NCBI GenBank assembly: GCA_964016885.1
Contig: OZ024751.1
Location: 8,494,001-8,558,000, forward strand
From: Eledone cirrhosa
Lineage: Eukaryota
DNA length: 64,000 bases
Direction of reading: 5' to 3'
Part shown: in pieces, positions 16,677 through 45,442 of the stretch
Position numbering within the stretch: the stretch's first letter is position 1
Layout of the letters: every line of letters starts with the position of its first letter
Made by a program: the position numbers and the translations under genes
Notes under the pieces: generated by a model
What the model was told of the DNA's origin: nothing
Database searches by the model: none
Seen by the model: only the letters and a program-made list of their open reading frames with translations

Positions 16677-17015
<339 letters not shown>

Positions 17016-17135
17016 GCCGTATGGCATAAATTCAGGCTGTTCGGTTTGTTGACAAACAAACGAACAAAGCGGCGTGTTGTAATAAACGTCCGCTAAACTG
17101 ATGCGTGCATATATGTATGTGTACCTGTATGTATG

Positions 17136-17188
<53 letters not shown>

Positions 17189-17354
17189 GTATATATATGC
17201 ATGCTACTGTACGTCTGTATACATATATGTATGTACGTATACATACATACTTACATTTAAGTAAGTGCCATACTAAGAGTGAGAAATGAAATTTCGTTTT
17301 CATTTTTTTCAACTTATCGTTTTCGGTATGCCTGACCGATTTAACTCACTCAAT

Positions 17355-17403
17355 ATGCAAATTAGGCTGCTCAGCCGTTAATTTTCATAAGGAAAGTATA
17401 TAC
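17355..17403 (+). promoter_or_regulatory. Candidate snRNA-type promoter cassette (octamer ATGCAAAT, PSE-like TCAGCCGTTAATTTTCATAAG, TATA-like GTATATA), one per unit
   Basis: The octamer is exact and conserved in subfamilies A, B and C upstream of the HHR. The PSE and TATA assignments are inference. Confidence 0.5.
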
Positions 17404-17435
17404 TTTCGAACGTTCAACTATCTGGCAGATGGGTA

Positions 17436-17480
17436 AACGGTGCTGATGATAGCTAACAAGCTTGAAACTAGTACATCGTT
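17436..17480 (+). ncRNA. Minimal type-I hammerhead ribozyme (subfamily A representative)
   Basis: AACGGTG-CTGATGA-T AGCT aaca AGCT T-GAA-ACTAGT-A-CATCGTT; palindromic stem III; predicted cleavage after GUA (17473). Confidence 0.9.
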
Positions 17481-17649
17481 CCTGTGTCAGTGTTGAACAA
17501 AAAGGTGACGTGGTTGCCTTAACACCGTATGGTATAATTTCAGGCTGTTCGGTTTGTTGACAAACAAACGAACAAAGCGGCGTTGTAATAAACGTCCGCT
17601 AAACTGATGCGTGCATGTATGCATGTGTACCTGTATGTATGTATGTATA

Positions 17650-17705
<56 letters not shown>

Positions 17706-18156
17706 CATGCTACTGTACGTCTGTATACATATATGTATGTACGTATACATACATACTTACATTTAAGTAAGTGCCATACTAAGAGTGAGAAATGAAATTT
17801 CGTTTTCATTTTTTTCAACTTATCGTTTTCGGTATGCCTGACCGATTTAACTCACTCAATATGCAAATTAGGCTGCTCAGCCGTTAATTTTCATAAGGAA
17901 AGTATATACTTTCGAACGTTCAACTATCTGGCAGATGGGTAAACGGTGCTGATGATAGCTAACAAGCTTGAAACTAGTACATCGTTCCTGTGTCAGTGTT
18001 GAACAAAAAAGTGACGTGGTTGCCTTAACACCGTATGGCATAAATTCAGGCTGTTCGGTTTGTTGACAAACAAACGAACAAAGCGGCGTTGTAATAAACG
18101 TCCTCTAAACTGATGCGTGCATATTATGTATGTGTACCTGTATGTATGTATGTATA

Positions 18157-18215
<59 letters not shown>

Positions 18216-18666
18216 GCATGCTACTGTACGTCTGTATACATATATGTATGTACGTATACATACATACTTACATTTAAGTAAGTGCCATACTAAGAGTGAG
18301 AAATGAAATTTCGTTTTCATTTTTTTCAACTTATCGTTTTCGGTATGCCTGACCGATTTAACTCACTCAATATGCAAATTAGGCTGCTCAGCCGTTAATT
18401 TTCATAAGGAAAGTATATACTTTCGAACGTTCAACTATCTGGCAGATGGGTAAACGGTGCTGATGATAGCTAACAAGCTTGAAACTAGTACATCGTTCCT
18501 GTGTCAGTGTTGAACAAAAAGGTGACGTGGTTGCCTTAACACCGTATGGCATAAATTCAGGCTGTTCGGTTTGTTGACAAACAAACGAACAAAGCGGCGT
18601 TGTAATAAACGTCCGCTAAACTGATGCGTGCATATATGTATGTGTACCTGTATGTATGTATGTATA

Positions 18667-18745
<79 letters not shown>

Positions 18746-19214
18746 GCATGCTACTGTACGTCTGTATACATATATGTATGTACGTATACATACATACTTA
18801 CATTTAAGTAAGTGCCATACTAAGAGTGAGAAATGAAATTTCGTTTTCATTTTTTTCAACTTATCGTTTTCGGTATGCCTGACCGATTTAACTCACTCAA
18901 TATGCAAATTAGGCTGCTCAGCCGTTAATTTTCATAATGAAAGTATATACTTTCGCAAGTTCAACTATCTGGCAGATGGGTAAACGGTGCTGATGATAGC
19001 TAACAAGCTTGAAACTAGTACATCGTTCCTGTGTCAGTGTTGAACAAAAAGGTGACGTGGTTGCCTTAACACCGTATGGCATAAATTCAGGCTGTTCGGT
19101 TTGTTGACAAACAAACGAACAAAGCGGCGTTGTAATAAACGTCCGCTAAACTGATGCGTGCATATATGTATGTGTACCTGTATGTATGTATGTATATATA
19201 TGTATGTATGTATA

Positions 19215-19273
<59 letters not shown>

Positions 19274-19678
19274 GCATGCTACTGTACGTCTGTATACCTA
19301 TATGTATGTACGTATACATACATACTTACATTTAAGTAAGTGCCAAACTAAGAGTGAGAAATGAAATTTCGTTTTCATTTTTTTCAACTTATATATATAT
19401 ATATATATATATATTTATGAATACATATAATTAGGTGTCTGTGTTTGTATGTTTATAAGTGTGTTTATGTACAAGAACCTGTTGATTTACACAATTACCT
19501 TTTCCGGACGTTCTCAGTGAGTATAAAATATTAATTATATTTTACCAGGCACAATCTATATACAAGTTAAAAGTAAGGATGATTTTTATTGTCTAACCGT
19601 TAGACTCTAACGTAACGTTTCATAATGTATGAGGATAGTCTGGGGCTTGTTGAACAAATTGCCTGTTATATATATATA

Positions 19679-20611: not shown

Positions 20612-21479
20612 GGGTATCAACAAATAAAAATGGTATTTATAGGTCTCTACAAGTGGTAGGAGAGGGTGAGGAGTGGGATGGGTGCAGGTCATTGGTTGAT
20701 AGAAAAGGGAATTCATTAAAAGCTAATTCTACAAAGCTATAGTTTATTTTTATTTTTATTTATTTATGTTTTTAGAGTAACAAGGGCAGACAGAATTCTA
20801 TAAACAGGTTCCGGATGGCATACCATTCCTTGTCATTAAGTTTCTCTTAATCTAACAGATGGGGCTCTATGTAATTGTCTAAATAAGGAAGCATGCCCAC
20901 TTGAAAACAAATGCCTCACAAATGACATCGTATACAAATGCGATGTCATCTCAGGCACCGAGGATTGCAAAAAAACTTACATCGGCATGACCTCCAACAA
21001 CTTTAAGACCCGTTGGTATGCCCATACGCACTCCTTCAGGAGACCGGATAAATCAAATCAGACAACACTCGCCTCCTACGTTTGGGACCTCAAAAGGAAC
21101 TCCACCCCCTTCACGCTTAAATGGAAAATACTCCAGAAAGCGCGCTCTTACAACGGAGGACACAAGGTCTGCGACCTTTGTATTTCAGAGAGCTACGAAA
21201 TTTTATTCGCCAAGGGCCCGCTACTGAACAAACTCTCTGAAAACTGCCCGAACTGCATGCACAAGAACTTTGCAACTTTCAAACACTTTAAGCCAGTGTT
21301 AAAGCCCGATGGCTAAAAACGATCTCCCCCTATTGGCCCCTATACCTCCTCCCCACCCTACCCCTACCCCTCCTCAACCTGAAATACGGCCACTATGGTT
21401 ATGTGAGTACCTCTTTCGTATCTACATTTTCTGCCTGTAGAGGTGTCTTTATGTGCCTGCGTATATACGTATATTTATT

Positions 21480-23700: not shown

Positions 23701-24334
23701 CGTAAGTGTGTGAGTGAGTATGTTTTTTTGTTTTTTTGTGAATGTGTCTGTTGATTTTTGGCATATAGTTGATTAGTTTAAGAGAAGTTCGAAGATAATA
23801 GTAAGATATGCAGTCAGTATTTTGAATCTGTCTGCAGAATTCTCTAGACCTTTGTCACTTAGTAGAACCTTAATGATTTTAGCTTTTAAAGAATCTCCCT
23901 TTTCTTTAATTCTATCGACCATGACTGACCCCCCCACTGATTTTATAGACATCTGTTAGTTTAAGAGAAACTTAATGACAAGGAATTGGTATGCCATCCG
24001 GAACCTGTTTATAGAATTCTGTCTGCCCTTGTTACTCTAAAAAGATAAATAAATAAAAATAAAAATAAACTATAGCTTTGTAGAATTAGCTTTCAATGAA
24101 TTCCCTTTTCTATCAACCAATGACCTGCACCCGTCCAACTCCCCACCCTCTCCTACCACTTGTAGAGACCTATAAATACCATTTTTATTTTTTGATACCC
24201 AGATTCCTGATGATTTCTAATGAATGAAACTGTTTTAGTCCTGTAGAATCTCATCTATATTAAAACTGTTATACTCTGCTATGTATTGAGTACCTTACTT
24301 ACTGTGGTTACCTCCGATTCAACCCGGAATAACG

Positions 24335-27892: not shown

Positions 27893-28004
27893 TAAGTTGT
27901 AATAAAATGAAAACGAGATTTCATTTCTCACTCTTAGTACGGCACTTACTTAAATGTAAGTATGTATACATACATATATATATGTATGCAGACGTATAGT
28001 AGCA

Positions 28005-28052
<48 letters not shown>

Positions 28053-28478
28053 CAGGTACACATACATATATGCACGTATCAGTTAAGCGGACGCTTATTA
28101 TAGCGCCCGCTTTGATCGTTTGTAAACAAACTGAACAGCCTGAATTTATGCCGTACGGTGTTAAGGCGACCACGTCACCTTTTTGTTCAACACTGACACA
28201 GGAACGATGTACTAGTTTCAAGCTTGTTAGCTATCATCAGCACCGTATACCCTTCTGCCAGATGGTTGAACGTTCGAAAGTATATACTTTCCTTATGAAA
28301 ATTAACGGCTGAGCAGCCTAATTTCCATATCGAGTGAGTTCGGACAGGCGTACCGAGAACGATAAGTTGCAATAAAATGAAAACGAGATTTCATTTCTCA
28401 CTCTTAGTACGGCACTTACTTAAATGTAAGTATGTATTTATACGTACATACATATATGTATACAGACGTATAGTAGCA

Positions 28479-28548
<70 letters not shown>

Positions 28549-28980
28549 CAGGTACACATACATATATGCACGTATCAGTTTAGCGGACGCTTATTATAGC
28601 GCCCGCTTTGTTCGTTTGTAAACAAATTGAACAGCCGGAATTTATGCCGTAAAGTGTTAAGGCAACCACGTCACCTTTTTGTTCAACACTGACACAGGAA
28701 CGATGTACTAGTTTCAAGCTTGTTAGCTATCATCAGCACCGTATACCCTTCTGCCAGATGGTTGAACGTTCGAAAGTATATACTTTCCTTATGAAAATTA
28801 ACGGCTGAGCAGCCTAATTTGCATATCGAGTGAATTCGGCCAGGCGTACCGAGAACGATAAGTTGTAATAACATGAAAACGATATTTCATTTCTCACTCT
28901 TAGTACGGCACTTACTTAAATGTAAGTATGTATGTATACGTACATACATATATGTATACAGACGTATAGTAGCATGTATA
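27893..28980 (-). repeat. Retrozyme-like array, subfamily A (2.2 units, 496 bp)
   Basis: HHRs at 28203-28247 and 28699-28743 on the minus strand. Confidence 0.9.
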
Positions 28981-28988
28981 TATATATA

Positions 28989-29106
<118 letters not shown>

Positions 29107-29111
29107 TTATA

Positions 29112-29176
<65 letters not shown>

Positions 29177-29199
29177 AATATATATATATATTATATATA

Positions 29200-29418
<219 letters not shown>

Positions 29419-29431
29419 TATAATTATTTAT

Positions 29432-30522
29432 ATAAAAACAAATAACGAAACGAAATTAAATTTCGTTTCGTTTGTAACTTACTTTTGTATGACTGACGCT
29501 TAAACAAATTGAGTTGAAAATGTACATCCACATATGTATACTGAAATACTAGTATGCATATGAATACACACACGTATACATATGTAGATGTACCAAGTTT
29601 TTGACTGGTCACTTTACTGTGAGTGTCCAGCTATTCTGTATGTAAACACACAGTCAAACCGGTTTTTAGAGTCATACTAGTTTTTGAGGAAACACCTTTC
29701 CTCTATTCTCCAGAAAGCCAGACGAGGAATATTGAACTAGTTTCGTTGTTGTTACAACTCATCAGCAATATTTACCTATCTTCCGGCCTTTCTGGAGAAT
29801 CGTAAAAGCACATATCGTTATATGCTTTTTCTATGAAAATTAGTAGTGGGCAGACTAATTTGCATAGAGTGTGAGTACGTACCGGTTCAACGGAGACGAT
29901 AAAAACAAATAACGAAACGAAATTAAATTTCGTTTCGTTTGTAACTCACTTTTGTATGACTGATGCTTAAACAATTAAGTTAAAAAGTTAAAAATGTACA
30001 TCCACATATGTATACTGAAATACTAGTATGCATATGAATACACACACGTATACATATGTAGATGTACCAATTAAGTTAAAAAGTGAGTTACAAACGAAAC
30101 GAAATTTAATTTCGTTTCGTTATTTGTTTTTATCGTCTCCGTTGAACCGGTACGTACTCACACTCTATGCAAATTAGTCTGCCCACTACTAATTTTCATA
30201 GAAAAAGCATATAACGATATGTGCTTTTACGATTCTCCAGAAAGGCCGGAAGATAGGTAAATATTGCTGATGAGTTGTAACAACAACGAAACTAGTTCAA
30301 TATTCCTTGTCTGGCTTTCTGGAGAATAGAGGAAAGGTGTTTCCTCAAAAACCAGTATGACTCTAAAAACCGGTTTGTCTGTGTGTTTACATACAGAATA
30401 GCTGGACACCCACAGTAAAGTGACCAGTGAAAAATTTGGTACATCTACATATGTATACGTGTGTGTATTCATATGCATACTAGTATTTCAGTATACATAT
30501 GTGGATGTACATTTTTAACTTA
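29432..30522. repeat. Retrozyme-like subfamily C (467-bp unit); minus block 29432-30070 joined to plus block 30070-30522
   Basis: HHR AATATTG-CTGATGA-GTTGT aaca ACAAC-GAA-ACTAGT-T-CAATATT at 29728-29772 (-) and 30260-30304 (+). Confidence 0.9.
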
Positions 30523-31995
<1,473 letters not shown>

Positions 31996-31998
<3 letters not shown>

Positions 31999-32213
31999 AA
32001 GGCGTGTAGCTGAGTGGTTAGAGAATTGGATTCACAATGTTGAGGTTGTGAGTTCGATTCCTGGACCGGGCGATGCGTTATGTCCTTGGGCAAGACACTT
32101 TATTTCACGTTGCTCCTTCTACCTGGAGTTGCGTCCGATAGATAGTACTAGCAACTGGAAAGACCAACGGAAACATTGTTTCCTCGGTCCGATTTGACGA
32201 GAGTCGATCGATC
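31996..32213 (+). mobile_element. tRNA-derived SINE family 1, full length
   Basis: A box TAGCTGAGTGG and B box GTTCGATTCC; flanked by (TA)n. Confidence 0.88.
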
Positions 32214-34388: not shown

Positions 34389-37300
34389 GCTCAAGTATTA
34401 ATGTAAGGGAGATATAGAGAGATATAGAGAGATATAGAGAGAGAAAAATTTAAAAATAGCCAGACATATTCGAGGCGTAGAAAACCCTATGTTTTAATGT
34501 ATTAGTATTTATAAAACTTACACTATATTGTAAATATCAGTATTCCTGAATGAAACAAGTATTCACAATGCGTGAAAATTCATTATCTTATGTTTAGTTT
34601 TTTAAAAAATTCATATGTCTATGTGAATCCAACTGATTCACTCCGCAAATTCAAAGTTACCGGAAAACATTCTCAATGTGGTATAAACATTTGAGCGTAT
34701 TATTATTCTTGCGATTACTCTACAAGATTATCTATCAAGCAGAAATAGAGAGCAGATTTCAATATACTAATCGAAAATATATATTATATTATAAGCAGAG
34801 ATAACAATAATAATGATAATAAGTAAAAATATATAAAAATATAAAAATATAGAATAGAAAACTAAAAAAGAATATTACGAAAGAATATTACATAATAAAA
34901 ATATTGCATATTAAAAATACTATGTTTTAAAATTATTACGTATTAAAACTTTACATATAAAAATATTAAAAATAAAAATAAAATAAAATAAAAAATAAAA
35001 AATAAAAATATAAAAATATTATAGAATACTACAATACTAAAAGAATAAAAATAAAAATAAAAATAAAAATAAAAATAAAAATAAAAAATAAACCACAAAG
35101 AACAACCCTTCAAGGTTAATTGACAATATATTGCCAAGTTCACTACAAGACAAAGCCAAAAATTATCTATCAAATCACATCTAGCAAGGAATATCGCAAA
35201 AAAAAAAAAGGTTATGATGTCCAATAATGTCTACATATGTTCCTATATTTAATATATAAGTTTATCAAGTGTAAGGTTAATTCATAAAATTTGGAGCATC
35301 GGCTTTTAGGGTAGCTTAATTTTTCATGAGGAATGTTTAGATAAAAATAAAAATAAAAAATAAAAATAAAAATAAATACAATAAAATAAACAGTAAAAAG
35401 AGGGAATCAAAGATTTAGGAATCAAAAGATTTATCGGCTAGTTCTCATATAAATATAAATCAAACTAAATATACTACATAAATTTAAATTTATATTTAAA
35501 CGTTGAGTTTAATCTATGTTTGCAACAACTGAATAAATTTGTCCGTAGGTTAAGGGAATTTTTAGATTTTAGTATAAAGAATATCTCCTCTGCGCAGAGG
35601 TCACATGTCTCAGAGGATGAATTAAAAGGAATCCCTCTTGAGACTATATTCCAAGCCGTCGAATATCTAACGTTATCTAGCTTAAGTTGCCAGAGTACAC
35701 CTGATAGTGCCGTTGAAGATTTTTTATTTGGATCTGTGAAAGAATTCTTGTGGTTATTATAGCGAAGTTTAAATTCCGTCGATGTGGAACCGACGTAGTT
35801 AAAAGAATTAGAGTCAGTATTAACATTACAATTGTATACTATATTTTTAACTAAGCAGTTGTTATTTAACGGACATTTAGATCTATCTCTACAGTTGCAT
35901 TTGTTAACTTGTATATTATTTTATGCTATTATCAGTAGTTTTTAAGTTCCTATTATTTATTCTATTAATATTTTGTGCTAAATTTTTGGTGGATGAATAG
36001 GTTAATTTAATTGTATGCCTATTGAAGATTGAGTGGTACCTATGTGTTCTATGGAAGCGATTATCAAGAGCTTTGAAAAATAATTTAGCGATGTGGGTTT
36101 AATGTTTAGTGAGAAAGGGGGGGGCAAACCAAATTATGTTCCTAGTTCTATTCTTTTTTGTCCTTTGGAATTATTGTAATGCTTTCTATTATAGTTGTTA
36201 ATGTTGTTGCCATAATTAAAAAAGTTGTTACTTTGTTTAGTTTGTTTTATCATTATCTATGTACACAATCTTATCAGCATACCCTGCCCTAGCTAGTGCA
36301 TCATTATAGTATTGGGCCTTTTCGTCAAAAATCTTTCTATTCGACGAGATCCTAGAGATACGCTTTTGGACTGAGTTTACTATAGTGTTTTTGACAGATC
36401 TGGGGTGGTTAGAGTTAAAGTTGACATAGTTTAAGTTTTCATTCAACTTGTGAAAAGGATAGTGGAGATATGTGTTGAGATTTAATGTTATATCTAGGAA
36501 ATTGACTATTCTATGGTTGTTCTCAATTTCTATTTTAAGGTTAAAGTAATTAAAAAATTTTGTAATTTGTTTACATTTTCTATTTAGTTCAGGGTTATTA
36601 TTATTAATGAGTAAAAGCATGTCATCCCTATATAAACCTCCGGTAGTACCAGGTATTTTCCTATGTAGCGAATTGATTAAAAATAAGCCACAAGGTCAGT
36701 TACTTGAGCTGAGTCGGAAGATCCCATAGTTATGTCAAAATTGCTATCTCTATCTGCTCTGGTCATAATTTGTCATCAAATTCTATCAAAGTTTTCCTAG
36801 CCGATAATATAATATGCATTTCTTTGCTAGTTAGGTCCGTATGTTTGAATGCGTAATTTAGTGCCTTATTTAGTAGACTAGGGGTAATAGAAGAATAATA
36901 GTTAGCTATATCAAGTTGAATAAACCTATTATTATTGTCATATTTAATTTGCCTAAAACCACTCAACAACCTCTCCGTTCCCTTCCACAAGCTCAGGTTA
37001 GATACATAATCCAAGTTCTTAATTTGCAGTATCACCCTGTCAAGAATGTTTTTGCTTAATTTGCCCAGGTCCGATTTTGAAGGTGCGATTAATCTAACTG
37101 GCAGGTCAATCTCAAAATTCCTCTTGTGGTCCTTCATATTGATCTTCGGTTTCCTGGGCACAAAAGGTTGTGTTCTGTTCTCAATTTCCAACTCATGCAT
37201 TATACAAGATGCTTCAACATTCATTTTCACAAGTTCGGTCTTATCTGCTACCTTGTATTTTTTTCCTCAGCTCTTTCAGTATGAGGCCATTATACATGTC

Positions 37301-38034
37301 TTTTCTGCACTCCATAGAGGTTGTTGGTCTTGTCAGATTTCACCAAGATCTTCTCAGTTTTCTCTAAGCTCTCAATGTTATCCTTAATGCCTTTCAGATA
37401 TTCCTGGCCTTTAAAGTTTCTCTTGAATTTGACCCCTTGTATGATAGAAATTATATCGTTTTCAAAGTCAGATAAAAGTTTGTTAGGGGGTGGATTTCTT
37501 TTAGATTTGATAACTTGTGTTTAAGTCCGAGATATTTTCGTCTGCATTAAATTTATCAAAGTGGAATGCACGCCACCTGATTCTCCTTATAAAAGAGTCA
37601 GATTTATCTATTAGTTGTTTTACAAAGTCTTTGTTTCTAGGTAGAGGTATGTCTTTTAGAGAGGAAGTAATCTTAAAGAATTCCATTTTTCAGTTATAAT
37701 ATAAAGCGCTCAACAGTATTGGAGCAAGATACATGTAAAGTTATATTTAAAATTGTTGGGTTACAACTAGTAAATATTTATAACTGATATAAAAGCACTC
37801 GACAAATACTTGGAGTATATTTACAATATTAAATAAATGGAAAACTATATTTATAAAACCATATTTATTTCATTATATATATTTCGGGGATATCATATTA
37901 ACAATATGCTATGCCTTCATCAGACAAAATACAATATAAACAGTTTTATAGATAAATATATTCGACATACCGTAATAACATCAACTTCATTTGAAGAGGT
38001 TCACTCTAGCAGTGAAAATACAGAGAGAAAGAAA
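33881..38034 (-). mobile_element. Near full-length Naiad-like PLE with 213-bp direct terminal repeats (33881-34094, 37822-38034), each with a hammerhead
   Basis: Frameshifted ORF 37686 to 35474 (MEFFKI..FIRRIRWRAFHF; GLYRDD; GIY-YIG). The repeats are identical except for one indel. HHRs at 33925-33990 and 37866-37931. (TA)n on both sides. Confidence 0.92.
35474..37686 (-). pseudogene. PLE reverse transcriptase-GIY-YIG endonuclease, frameshifted
   Basis: ORF pieces 37501-37686, 36763-37230 and 36237-36620 plus the EN region; closely similar to 559-2601. Confidence 0.9.
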
Positions 38035-43711: not shown

Positions 43712-44490
43712 ATTGTTGTACTTGGGGAGGGTCATATTTGTGTAATATTGCCAGAATTAATAACAGAACACACTCACTGTTTGGTTGGTTTTCGCTTCTC
43801 GCTGTCTTTTATATCTGCAATCTAGCTTACTCGGTCCTCAATGTTGCCATTTATAAATGCCATTTATAAATGAACAGTGGCGAGACCTTCAAGATAGTAA
43901 AGAATCATCTGTACTCTACCAACATGCTAAAATAGAACACAAGGGTAAATTAGAGAACATAGAAATAAAAATAGAATCTATACACAGAAAAGACGCAATG
44001 TTTAGACAAATTACAGAGGCAATAAACATAAAAGAATTACAACCAAAATTAAATAGAAAAATATGAGTGGAACAGCAACATCACAACTTACAATTAAGGA
44101 CAAAATGAAATCACACACACACATAGATCAAACAACCAACCAGTAACATGTAAATAACAAATAAATGAACATAAACACACACAGACACCGAATGTGGCGC
44201 ATGCGCAGACTGAGAACACAACACACACACAGACACAAAATGGCGTAGGACAGAACAAAGGAGAGGCACAGAAACAAAGAAAGGAATCCCCAGTCACTGA
44301 AGAGGTTACAGACTGTGTGACGAAAGAAATATGACTATATATAAACAACTATCTGGTTGTGGAACCAACCAACCAACCAGAAATTTATAAATTTATAAAT
44401 TTATTATAAATTTATTATAATAAATTGAAGTGAAAGCAACTGGTGCGTGTGTTTCTTATTGACAACATGACCCTCCCAAAGTATAACAAT
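43712..44490 (+). mobile_element. PLE family G 3' fragment (GIY-YIG C-terminus 43870-44070, HHR 44292-44336) with an inverted related terminus at 43712-43860
   Basis: SVLYQHAKIEH..RQITEAINI..LNRK is homologous to 5520-5720; 43712-43815 is inverted-similar to 6120-6225. Confidence 0.82.
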
Positions 44491-44988: not shown

Positions 44989-45442
44989 TGATTAATATTA
45001 AGAAAAATTAATAATACGAAGAGTTAAAATTTGAGATTTGAAAATTCAAGTATAAAATTCATTGTGGGATTTCATAGCAGTTTTCATCTAGGTAGCAACA
45101 ACAGGTTGACTGCTGTGTCCCTTTCTGGTAGTGAATGAGAAGTTATTTGGGGTGTGGGTTATTTTATAAAGGTCAGATTTAGCAATCACCAACTGGCCAG
45201 CTGCTGATCAGTGAGGGGGTGGAAGCAATATACATACACATATCTTCCTGTGGTGGGTAGGGGAGTGGAGCGTGATAGAAAGGGATTTAGTGCACTTACA
45301 CCTACATATACACACATACCTTCATCCACACATACATACATATACATATACATATATATATATATATATATAGTATATATACATATACACACATACATAC
45401 ACACACACATACATATACATACACACACACATATATACACAT

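Follow-up and report, generated by a model that had tools for sequence, protein, structure and literature searches.

As described in PMC7229834 and bioRxiv 10.64898/2026.07.22.740005, metazoan non-LTR retrozymes are tandem, non-coding units that carry a type I hammerhead ribozyme, have a short palindromic helix III and low GC content, co-occur with Penelope-like elements (PLEs) and form a circle that is strongly self-paired but leaves the hammerhead arms free. Expression of their circular RNAs (circRNAs) has been reported in animals, with editing offered as one guess for the mismatch between these circles and the genomic copies (PMC7229834); the main text of that report is without cephalopods, although its supplement may list more molluscs. 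The PLEs of the Hydra clade, for which a member from Octopus bimaculoides is listed, are marked by DKT, RWK and CxCx5C motifs and by (TA)n targeting, and partial tandems together with an inverted 5′-truncated copy are regarded as hallmarks of PLEs in general (PMC8557442). Newt satellite 2, for which an internal snRNA-type promoter has been reported (PMC2220036, citing Coats et al. 1994), is likewise a tandem hammerhead repeat that cleaves as a dimer; at 330 bp and with a very high copy number, it is likened to the family treated here by description only.

Here, we analysed a 64-kb stretch of Eledone cirrhosa DNA (hereafter, the window) that contains three subfamilies (A, B and C) of such a repeat. 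Judged by its sequence, the A/B/C family shares the features listed for these retrozymes, low GC content and free hammerhead arms included, is likely a non-LTR retrozyme family and probably works like the known ones. Its units of 426-506 nt are longer than the 170-400 nt of expressed retrozymes (PMC7229834) and remain within the limits of 51-972 bp given by Li et al., and A and B share a U-U at the base of stem II with axolotl HHR_Amex2 (PMC7229834). Yet a fixed 3′ end, inverted arms, a (TA)n target and a conserved octamer, all present here, go unmentioned for retrozymes in the accessible text of PMC7229834 and bioRxiv 10.64898/2026.07.22.740005, and in the searched literature, subscription journals and Repbase aside, neither this family nor any cephalopod retrozyme or edited retrozyme is described. 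Animal retrozymes being known already, what the Eledone family adds is a fixed priming site and a lead on editing, which make two questions testable, namely which enzyme moves retrozymes and why their circles differ from the genomic copies.

The C locus and its relatives in the window

The C locus (29432-30522) consists of two copies of a 459-467-nt unit joined 5′-to-5′. Its main arm (29432..30070, minus strand) comprises a 467-nt unit and a partial tandem repeat, that is 1.37 units with one hammerhead, and terminates at the fixed 3′ site of the family; the partial second unit (29432..29596, minus strand) is 92% identical to 29899-30070, the 8-nt indel counted in, and contains both the terminal hairpin (29444-29472, minus strand) and the fixed 3′ end adjoining (TA)n. 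The inverted arm (30069..30527, plus strand; 447 nt, 98% identical to the unit) begins with 16 nt copied from 29973-29988; this stretch is reverse-complementary to the arm's own 3′ end and is likely the product of a template switch. On the left, the locus borders on the (TA)n-rich tract that served as its target (29060..29431) and that lies between C and a cluster of A units, and on the right it borders on a second such tract (30528..31870). An 8-nt duplication (29977-29984) is private to the minus arm of the window, being absent from the plus arm and from all three contig-bearing sequencing runs considered below.

All motifs named in the sequence-only reading (the stems, the core, the AACA loop II, ACTAGT, the octamer and a terminal GAAA..TTTC hairpin) are in place, and the identical set recurs on the minus arm. 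Each arm carries a complete type I hammerhead, with the core CUGANGA/GAAA/NUH, helices I and II and a closed helix III. The one on the minus arm (29725..29777, core 29765-29759) has its predicted cleavage site, GUU, between 29735 and 29734. On the plus strand, the ribozyme (30260..30304) is built of stem I (30260-30266/30298-30304), the core CTGATGA from 30267, stem II with its G10.1-C11.1 pair and AACA loop (30274-30287), GAAA at 30288 and the palindromic ACTAGT stem III (30291-30296), with cleavage predicted after U30297 (GUU). It is enclosed by an extended stem I and a 12-bp outer stem (30233..30326 as a whole; outer stem 30233-30244/30315-30326, 12/12 pairs) and followed by a hairpin (30329..30346) whose loop reads GGTG/GTG in A, B and C. 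Upstream on the same strand stand the octamer hairpin (30165..30200), where ATGCAAAT (30167) is accompanied by an octamer-like element in inverted orientation (30190-30200), and a terminal 13-bp hairpin (30093..30121) directly before the fixed 3′ end site and a T-run. The C unit holds no 100-aa ORF, and the reading frames across A and C are of low complexity or antisense and lack conservation.

A hammerhead descriptor identified 18 sites in the window and none in each of 30 block shuffles. The best ribozyme match in Rfam is Hammerhead_HH9 (RF02275), which scores 37.7 bits (E 2.7e-7) on the plus arm and 34.1 bits on the minus arm, both below the gathering score of 52, and merely 17.6 bits on subfamily A copies; at the gathering level, Rfam returns no match in the window. 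Matches to miRNAs at the Rfam E-value level were dismissed as artefacts of TA hairpins. A pattern scan of metagenome contigs returned five loci, none of them with a hammerhead fold or a match to the window, and a scan of viral contigs returned none.

The subfamilies differ at the catalytic site: A and B combine a GUA cleavage triplet with a U-U mismatch at the base of stem II, whereas C has the canonical G-C pair there but a GUU triplet. GUC and GUA are the fastest natural triplets, while GUU, which conforms to NUH, is active (PMC3138052), and the site of C is predicted to cleave more slowly than those of A and B. In addition, GUU extends the palindrome of C to AACUAGUU, an 8-bp self-duplex that would sequester A14 and U17. 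For A and C alike, the predicted hammerhead fold of the 51-nt monomer costs about 8 kcal/mol relative to an alternative fold, which agrees with the cleavage as a dimer that has been described, along with a short palindromic helix III, in PMC4209133.

The window as a whole has 28% GC, is packed with (TA)n tracts and retroelement remnants, and contains 16 recognisable units of the family (9 A, 5 B and 2 C) in six clusters. Tandem units occur in the first A cluster (17017..19392, plus strand; four hammerheads, fixed 3′ end at ~19392), in the second (27893..29058, minus strand; two hammerheads, fixed 3′ end at ~27893) and in the B cluster (56149..58394), in which three plus-strand and two minus-strand units are joined 5′-to-5′ with the fixed end on the minus arm. 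The remaining A clusters are inverted pairs, one with the fixed end on the plus arm (45329..45994) and one with the fixed end on the minus arm and a damaged core (CTGTTGA) in the plus copy (50506..51758). In 6/6 clusters, exactly one end lies at the homologous fixed site, behind the terminal hairpin and T-run, abutting (TA)n and 272-372 nt downstream of the last cleavage site; 4/6 have an inverted arm joined 5′-to-5′, the end of which varies. Units within the first A cluster differ from each other at 2-5 sites, as predicted by copying from one template, and from those of other clusters at 13-26. None of the six clusters shows a layout of an LTR pair with an interior, or an ORF with reverse transcriptase (RT) and GIY-YIG attached to the units.

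Two consecutive units with complete hammerheads, which mark an 'active' locus according to Li et al., are present in 3/6 clusters and absent from C, where each strand carries one hammerhead. The release of a monomer from C itself is thereby ruled out, and a transcript spanning the whole locus would form a hairpin of about 450 bp instead; the C locus is a passive product. Some units and insertions also differ in their relation to (TA)n. In the A units (28440-28575 and homologues), a long hairpin is tipped by an internal (TA)n whose length varies; this tract is short in B and absent in C, which accounts for much of the difference in unit length. C sits in the (TA)n tract 5′ of the second A cluster, and the B insertion lies within a (TA)n tract (56100-56149) directly at the end of a copy of another hammerhead family (D, see below), so that the two together represent nested use of the same targets.

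Paired changes and the fold of the whole unit

It had been proposed from the sequence that the stems of C are rewritten relative to A and still pair, and this is borne out in the gap-free 51-nt hammerhead block. Between the A copy at 17443 and C, the block differs at 15 positions, 14 of them in paired columns, and these 14 make up seven double-sided changes, every one of which is Watson-Crick in C; the sole unpaired change is A to U at residue 17. When as many changes were placed at random, 7/7 pairing was matched in one of 200,000 trials, and in two and none of 200,000 for two other comparisons with C. In an alignment made by MAFFT from sequence only, double-sided changes occur in 10/35 pairs, a level reached by 0/500 shuffles, with 0-4 in slid controls, and in a model-fitted alignment they occur in 24/54; the hairpin at 30329..30346 has them in 4/6 pairs. 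Similarly, a covariance model for which 10 A and B copies served as the training set detects C at 89.6 and 88.6 bits when structure is included and at 44.2 and 43.3 bits when it is not, and this gain of about 45 bits equals that of the training copies, bearing in mind that the two kinds of score come from two model types and are not strictly comparable.

The extent of this signal is narrower than the 'full' covariation first claimed, which is somewhat overstated. In the sequence-only alignment of the other half, double-sided changes affect 3/45 pairs, and what is common to the structures there shows in the matching succession of helices and in the loops they share, not in column-wise covariation. 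Moreover, A and B alone yield double-sided changes in 2/54 pairs, a level matched by 362 of 500 shuffles, so that the covariation rests on one branch, A versus C being essentially one evolutionary comparison; the two C rows count as one event, and there are three lineages in all. With identities of 85% between A and B and 66% between either of them and C, the family is diversified, as had been suggested; its supposed old age is not supported by divergence alone, because PLE-associated hammerheads are described as evolving fast (PMC4209133, discussion), and the 'old, diversified' reading of these sequences is thus half supported.

The whole unit folds strongly. Circular folds have z of -4 to -16 in 4/4 units (40 shuffles each), as expected of a strongly self-paired circle, and comprise 14 helices in A, 14 in B and 15 in C in matching order (matched by eye), with the loops GGUG/GUG, UUUA and AACA in common. 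In 4/4 units, the ribozyme strand forms a better fold than its complement (for C, z is -9.3 versus -6.3 with equal shuffle means), which argues for RNA and against selection on cruciforms, and G-U pairs are retained on the ribozyme strand. Together with the paired changes around an invariant catalytic core, these observations support the earlier proposal of selection on RNA structure.

The three diverged subfamilies amount to a natural map of the structure of an entire retrozyme circle, on which the octamer helix alone stands out as held by sequence, not pairing. The octamer is intact in 14/16 units and occurs five times elsewhere in the window. Of the 14 pairs in its helix, 10 are invariant and none shows a double-sided change (0/14), while the adjacent helices are rewritten, and the strand that pairs with the octamer reads as a second, inverted octamer-like site. 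At the sequence level, this helix is conserved rather than covarying; we infer that the octamer is bound by a protein, the simplest reading being a POU-factor promoter element. The promoter of newt satellite 2 reportedly includes an octamer as well. A Pol III reading, with the T-run as terminator, was set aside because both the tandem arrays and a closed contig (see below) continue past the T-run, and a scan for sigma-70 promoters, which are irrelevant to animal DNA, gave results at chance level.

C-like contigs and the A>G pattern

Of 24 listed public runs, four were examined, one of which, the Hi-C DNA run X22, contributed no reads. C-like sequence is present in the three with contigs (X9, X14 and X16), which belong to three studies with three organism labels and may be DNA or RNA; no RNA run is among the holders listed in the sequencing-run search. 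A 503-nt contig of X9 circles the C unit with a 30-nt self-overlap, closing a 473-nt cycle that could equally come from collapsed tandem DNA, and the head-to-tail joint of C is crossed in both X9 and X14. Single changes break predicted pairs at 2/8 paired sites in X9, 3/5 in X14 and 1/1 in X16.

Compared to C, the X9 contig has 15 substitutions, eight of which are A>G on the ribozyme strand. Relative to the genomic A and B copies, this excess has a P of about 2e-5 (4e-3 at a generous 20% background) in a test that was selected after seeing the data and has no matched DNA control. The same excess was sought among the genomic A and B copies and not found, A>G making up 10 of 107 changes there, with one B row partly misaligned. 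One of the eight sites, 29964, lies in a CpG and is also variant in the window's own partial copy. The remaining seven (29730, 29818, 29856, 29859, 29860, 29968 and 29989) are not CpG-related, and each is preceded by U or A (background 97/150); five of them lie in predicted helices, where the change produces G-U, and five are private to X9. Two of the A>G sites are mixed in X14, namely 29856 and, below the listing threshold, 29859. A-to-I editing by ADAR is well known in cephalopods, and the pattern in X9 resembles it, which we regard as a lead only, considering that alleles can mimic such a pattern.

Penelope-like elements and the mobilisation of the family

Several features tie the family to PLEs. 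Its insertions have the Penelope-type anatomy of partial tandems, an inverted 5′-truncated copy, a common 3′ end and a microsatellite target, and like the Hydra-clade PLEs, including Hydra-1_Obim, they combine (TA)n targeting with single-site ends and a hammerhead near the 3′ end (PMC8557442). The window itself contains broken PLE ORFs with Hydra-type motifs (DKT, RWR and CxCx5C) at 562-2664 (minus), 20840-21313 (plus), 35477-37600 (minus) and 53561-54433 (minus), as well as a broken Penelope-like ORF at 5164-5565 (plus). Their identity is based on motifs, Atlas and a homologue search, all agreeing; Pfam names none of them and just one of nine ORFs, a LINE RT. Unlike Hydra-clade PLEs, A, B and C lack an ORF, and no similarity between them and the PLE ends of the window could be detected: a comparison with 10 stretches gave nothing beyond short low-complexity matches (best 15 nt), which leaves the mobilising partner and an origin from pLTRs unproven. 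As listed, the hammerhead of Hydra-1_Obim resembles that of C in having U at the cleavage site, but it differs from those of A, B and C in sequence, with 7 bp in stem II and 4 bp in stem III (PMC8557442). Homology to pLTRs is reported for Xenopus retrozymes, in contrast to the Eledone family (bioRxiv 10.64898/2026.07.22.740005). The link to PLEs is therefore anatomical and circumstantial.

What is directly seen comprises the motif, the paired changes, the helix order, the tandem and inverted copies, the fixed end in 6/6 clusters, the (TA)n flanks and the remnants of Hydra-type ORFs. Taken together, these make it highly probable, in our judgement, that the family is a non-coding type I hammerhead repeat whose fold is conserved; it is likely a non-LTR retrozyme, and its RNA, predicted to cleave itself and to be circularised, is likely copied into (TA)n by the RT of a PLE, the Hydra clade being the likely source. 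In such a cycle, transcription of a tandem array would yield the ribozyme strand, perhaps starting at an internal promoter that contains the octamer; adjacent hammerheads would pair via ACUAGU and cleave, releasing monomers of 430-500 nt, which a host ligase would circularise. A PLE enzyme would then nick (TA)n, prime behind the terminal hairpin and copy more than one round, with an occasional template switch giving rise to an inverted arm. A more specific version, in which a retrozyme transcribed from its own octamer promoter yields an ADAR-edited circRNA that a Hydra-clade Penelope enzyme reinserts at one fixed priming site, is tentative and, on balance, doubtful. If true, this would be the first retrozyme of an animal in which editing leaves a visible signature and the priming site can be read, explaining the sequence heterogeneity of circRNAs and naming the mobilising enzyme; if the editing and the partner fail, what remains is a new but otherwise ordinary family of retrozymes, from a lineage for which the searched literature describes none.

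An alternative source of such units would be an autonomous PLE outside the window, of which they would represent detached pLTRs, that is ordinary 5′-truncated copies and no independent retrozyme. The insertion anatomy would be identical, PLE insertions are mostly 5′-truncated, and known transposable elements match 24 of 57 retrozyme families of Xenopus, 21/22 of these elements being PLEs (bioRxiv 2026.07.22.740005). However, none of the six clusters runs on into coding sequence, arrays reach four whole head-to-tail units, the entire unit folds as a closed structure, and the PLEs of the window have different hammerheads and no similarity to the units, all of which makes this origin unlikely. 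The fold could instead be a by-product of DNA: in a satellite or minisatellite, hairpins would arise and be repaired via template switching, with no selection on RNA and a dead ribozyme. Indeed, near-perfect inverted repeats abound in the unit, which folds well on both strands, the octamer helix does not covary, and one of nine predicted Xenopus elements cleaved in vitro (bioRxiv 10.64898/2026.07.22.740005). Nevertheless, unpaired catalytic residues, loops and a bulge are kept though the stems are rewritten, the orientation of the loops is kept and G-U pairs favour one strand, while a fixed 3′ end with dispersed insertions is unlike satellites, and we regard this as very improbable.

Equally improbable is a viroid-like circular RNA that replicates from RNA to RNA, moves from host to host and is occasionally endogenised, despite the closed contig in X9, the rod-and-branch fold and the occurrence of C-like sequence in runs that differ in organism label and study. 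The unit has a hammerhead on just one strand rather than on both polarities, and 64 kb contain 16 genomic units with PLE-type insertion marks. We thus retain the retrozyme copied by a PLE enzyme as the preferred reading.

The window contains at least five hammerhead families, and those of its PLEs differ from A, B and C. Cores of family D, at 24207 (plus), 20605 (minus) and 56062 (plus), lie ~25-45 nt from a (TA)n junction, and one copy stands inverted before the PLE piece at 20840; family D is likely the terminal repeat of the PLE family found there. Family E, with a long stem II, occurs at 4739 (minus), 4350 (plus), 40029 (minus) and ~37700 (minus), with a fragment near 31870. Its copies at 4350 and 4739 form an inverted pair, and one copy lies ~350 nt upstream of a PLE ORF start, as expected of a 5′ pLTR. 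Further hammerhead-like motifs with a stem II of 6-7 bp occur at 44297 (plus), 42186 (minus) and 5989 (plus), the last behind a GIY-YIG remnant.

Other repeats are present as well. What we take to be tRNA-like SINE heads stand at 31996-32100, 16800-16890 and 2970-3060, where ARAGORN calls no tRNA, and a 200-N assembly gap (47034-47233) falls inside a microsatellite-rich stretch. LINE reverse transcriptase remnants occur at 60371-62476 (minus), 8044-8484 (minus) and 50136-50468 (plus). The first of these matches RVT_1, and the closest named homologues of the LINE RT, among the best 120 of 164 matches, are from Octopus (60%), Argonauta (56%) and a crustacean (48%).
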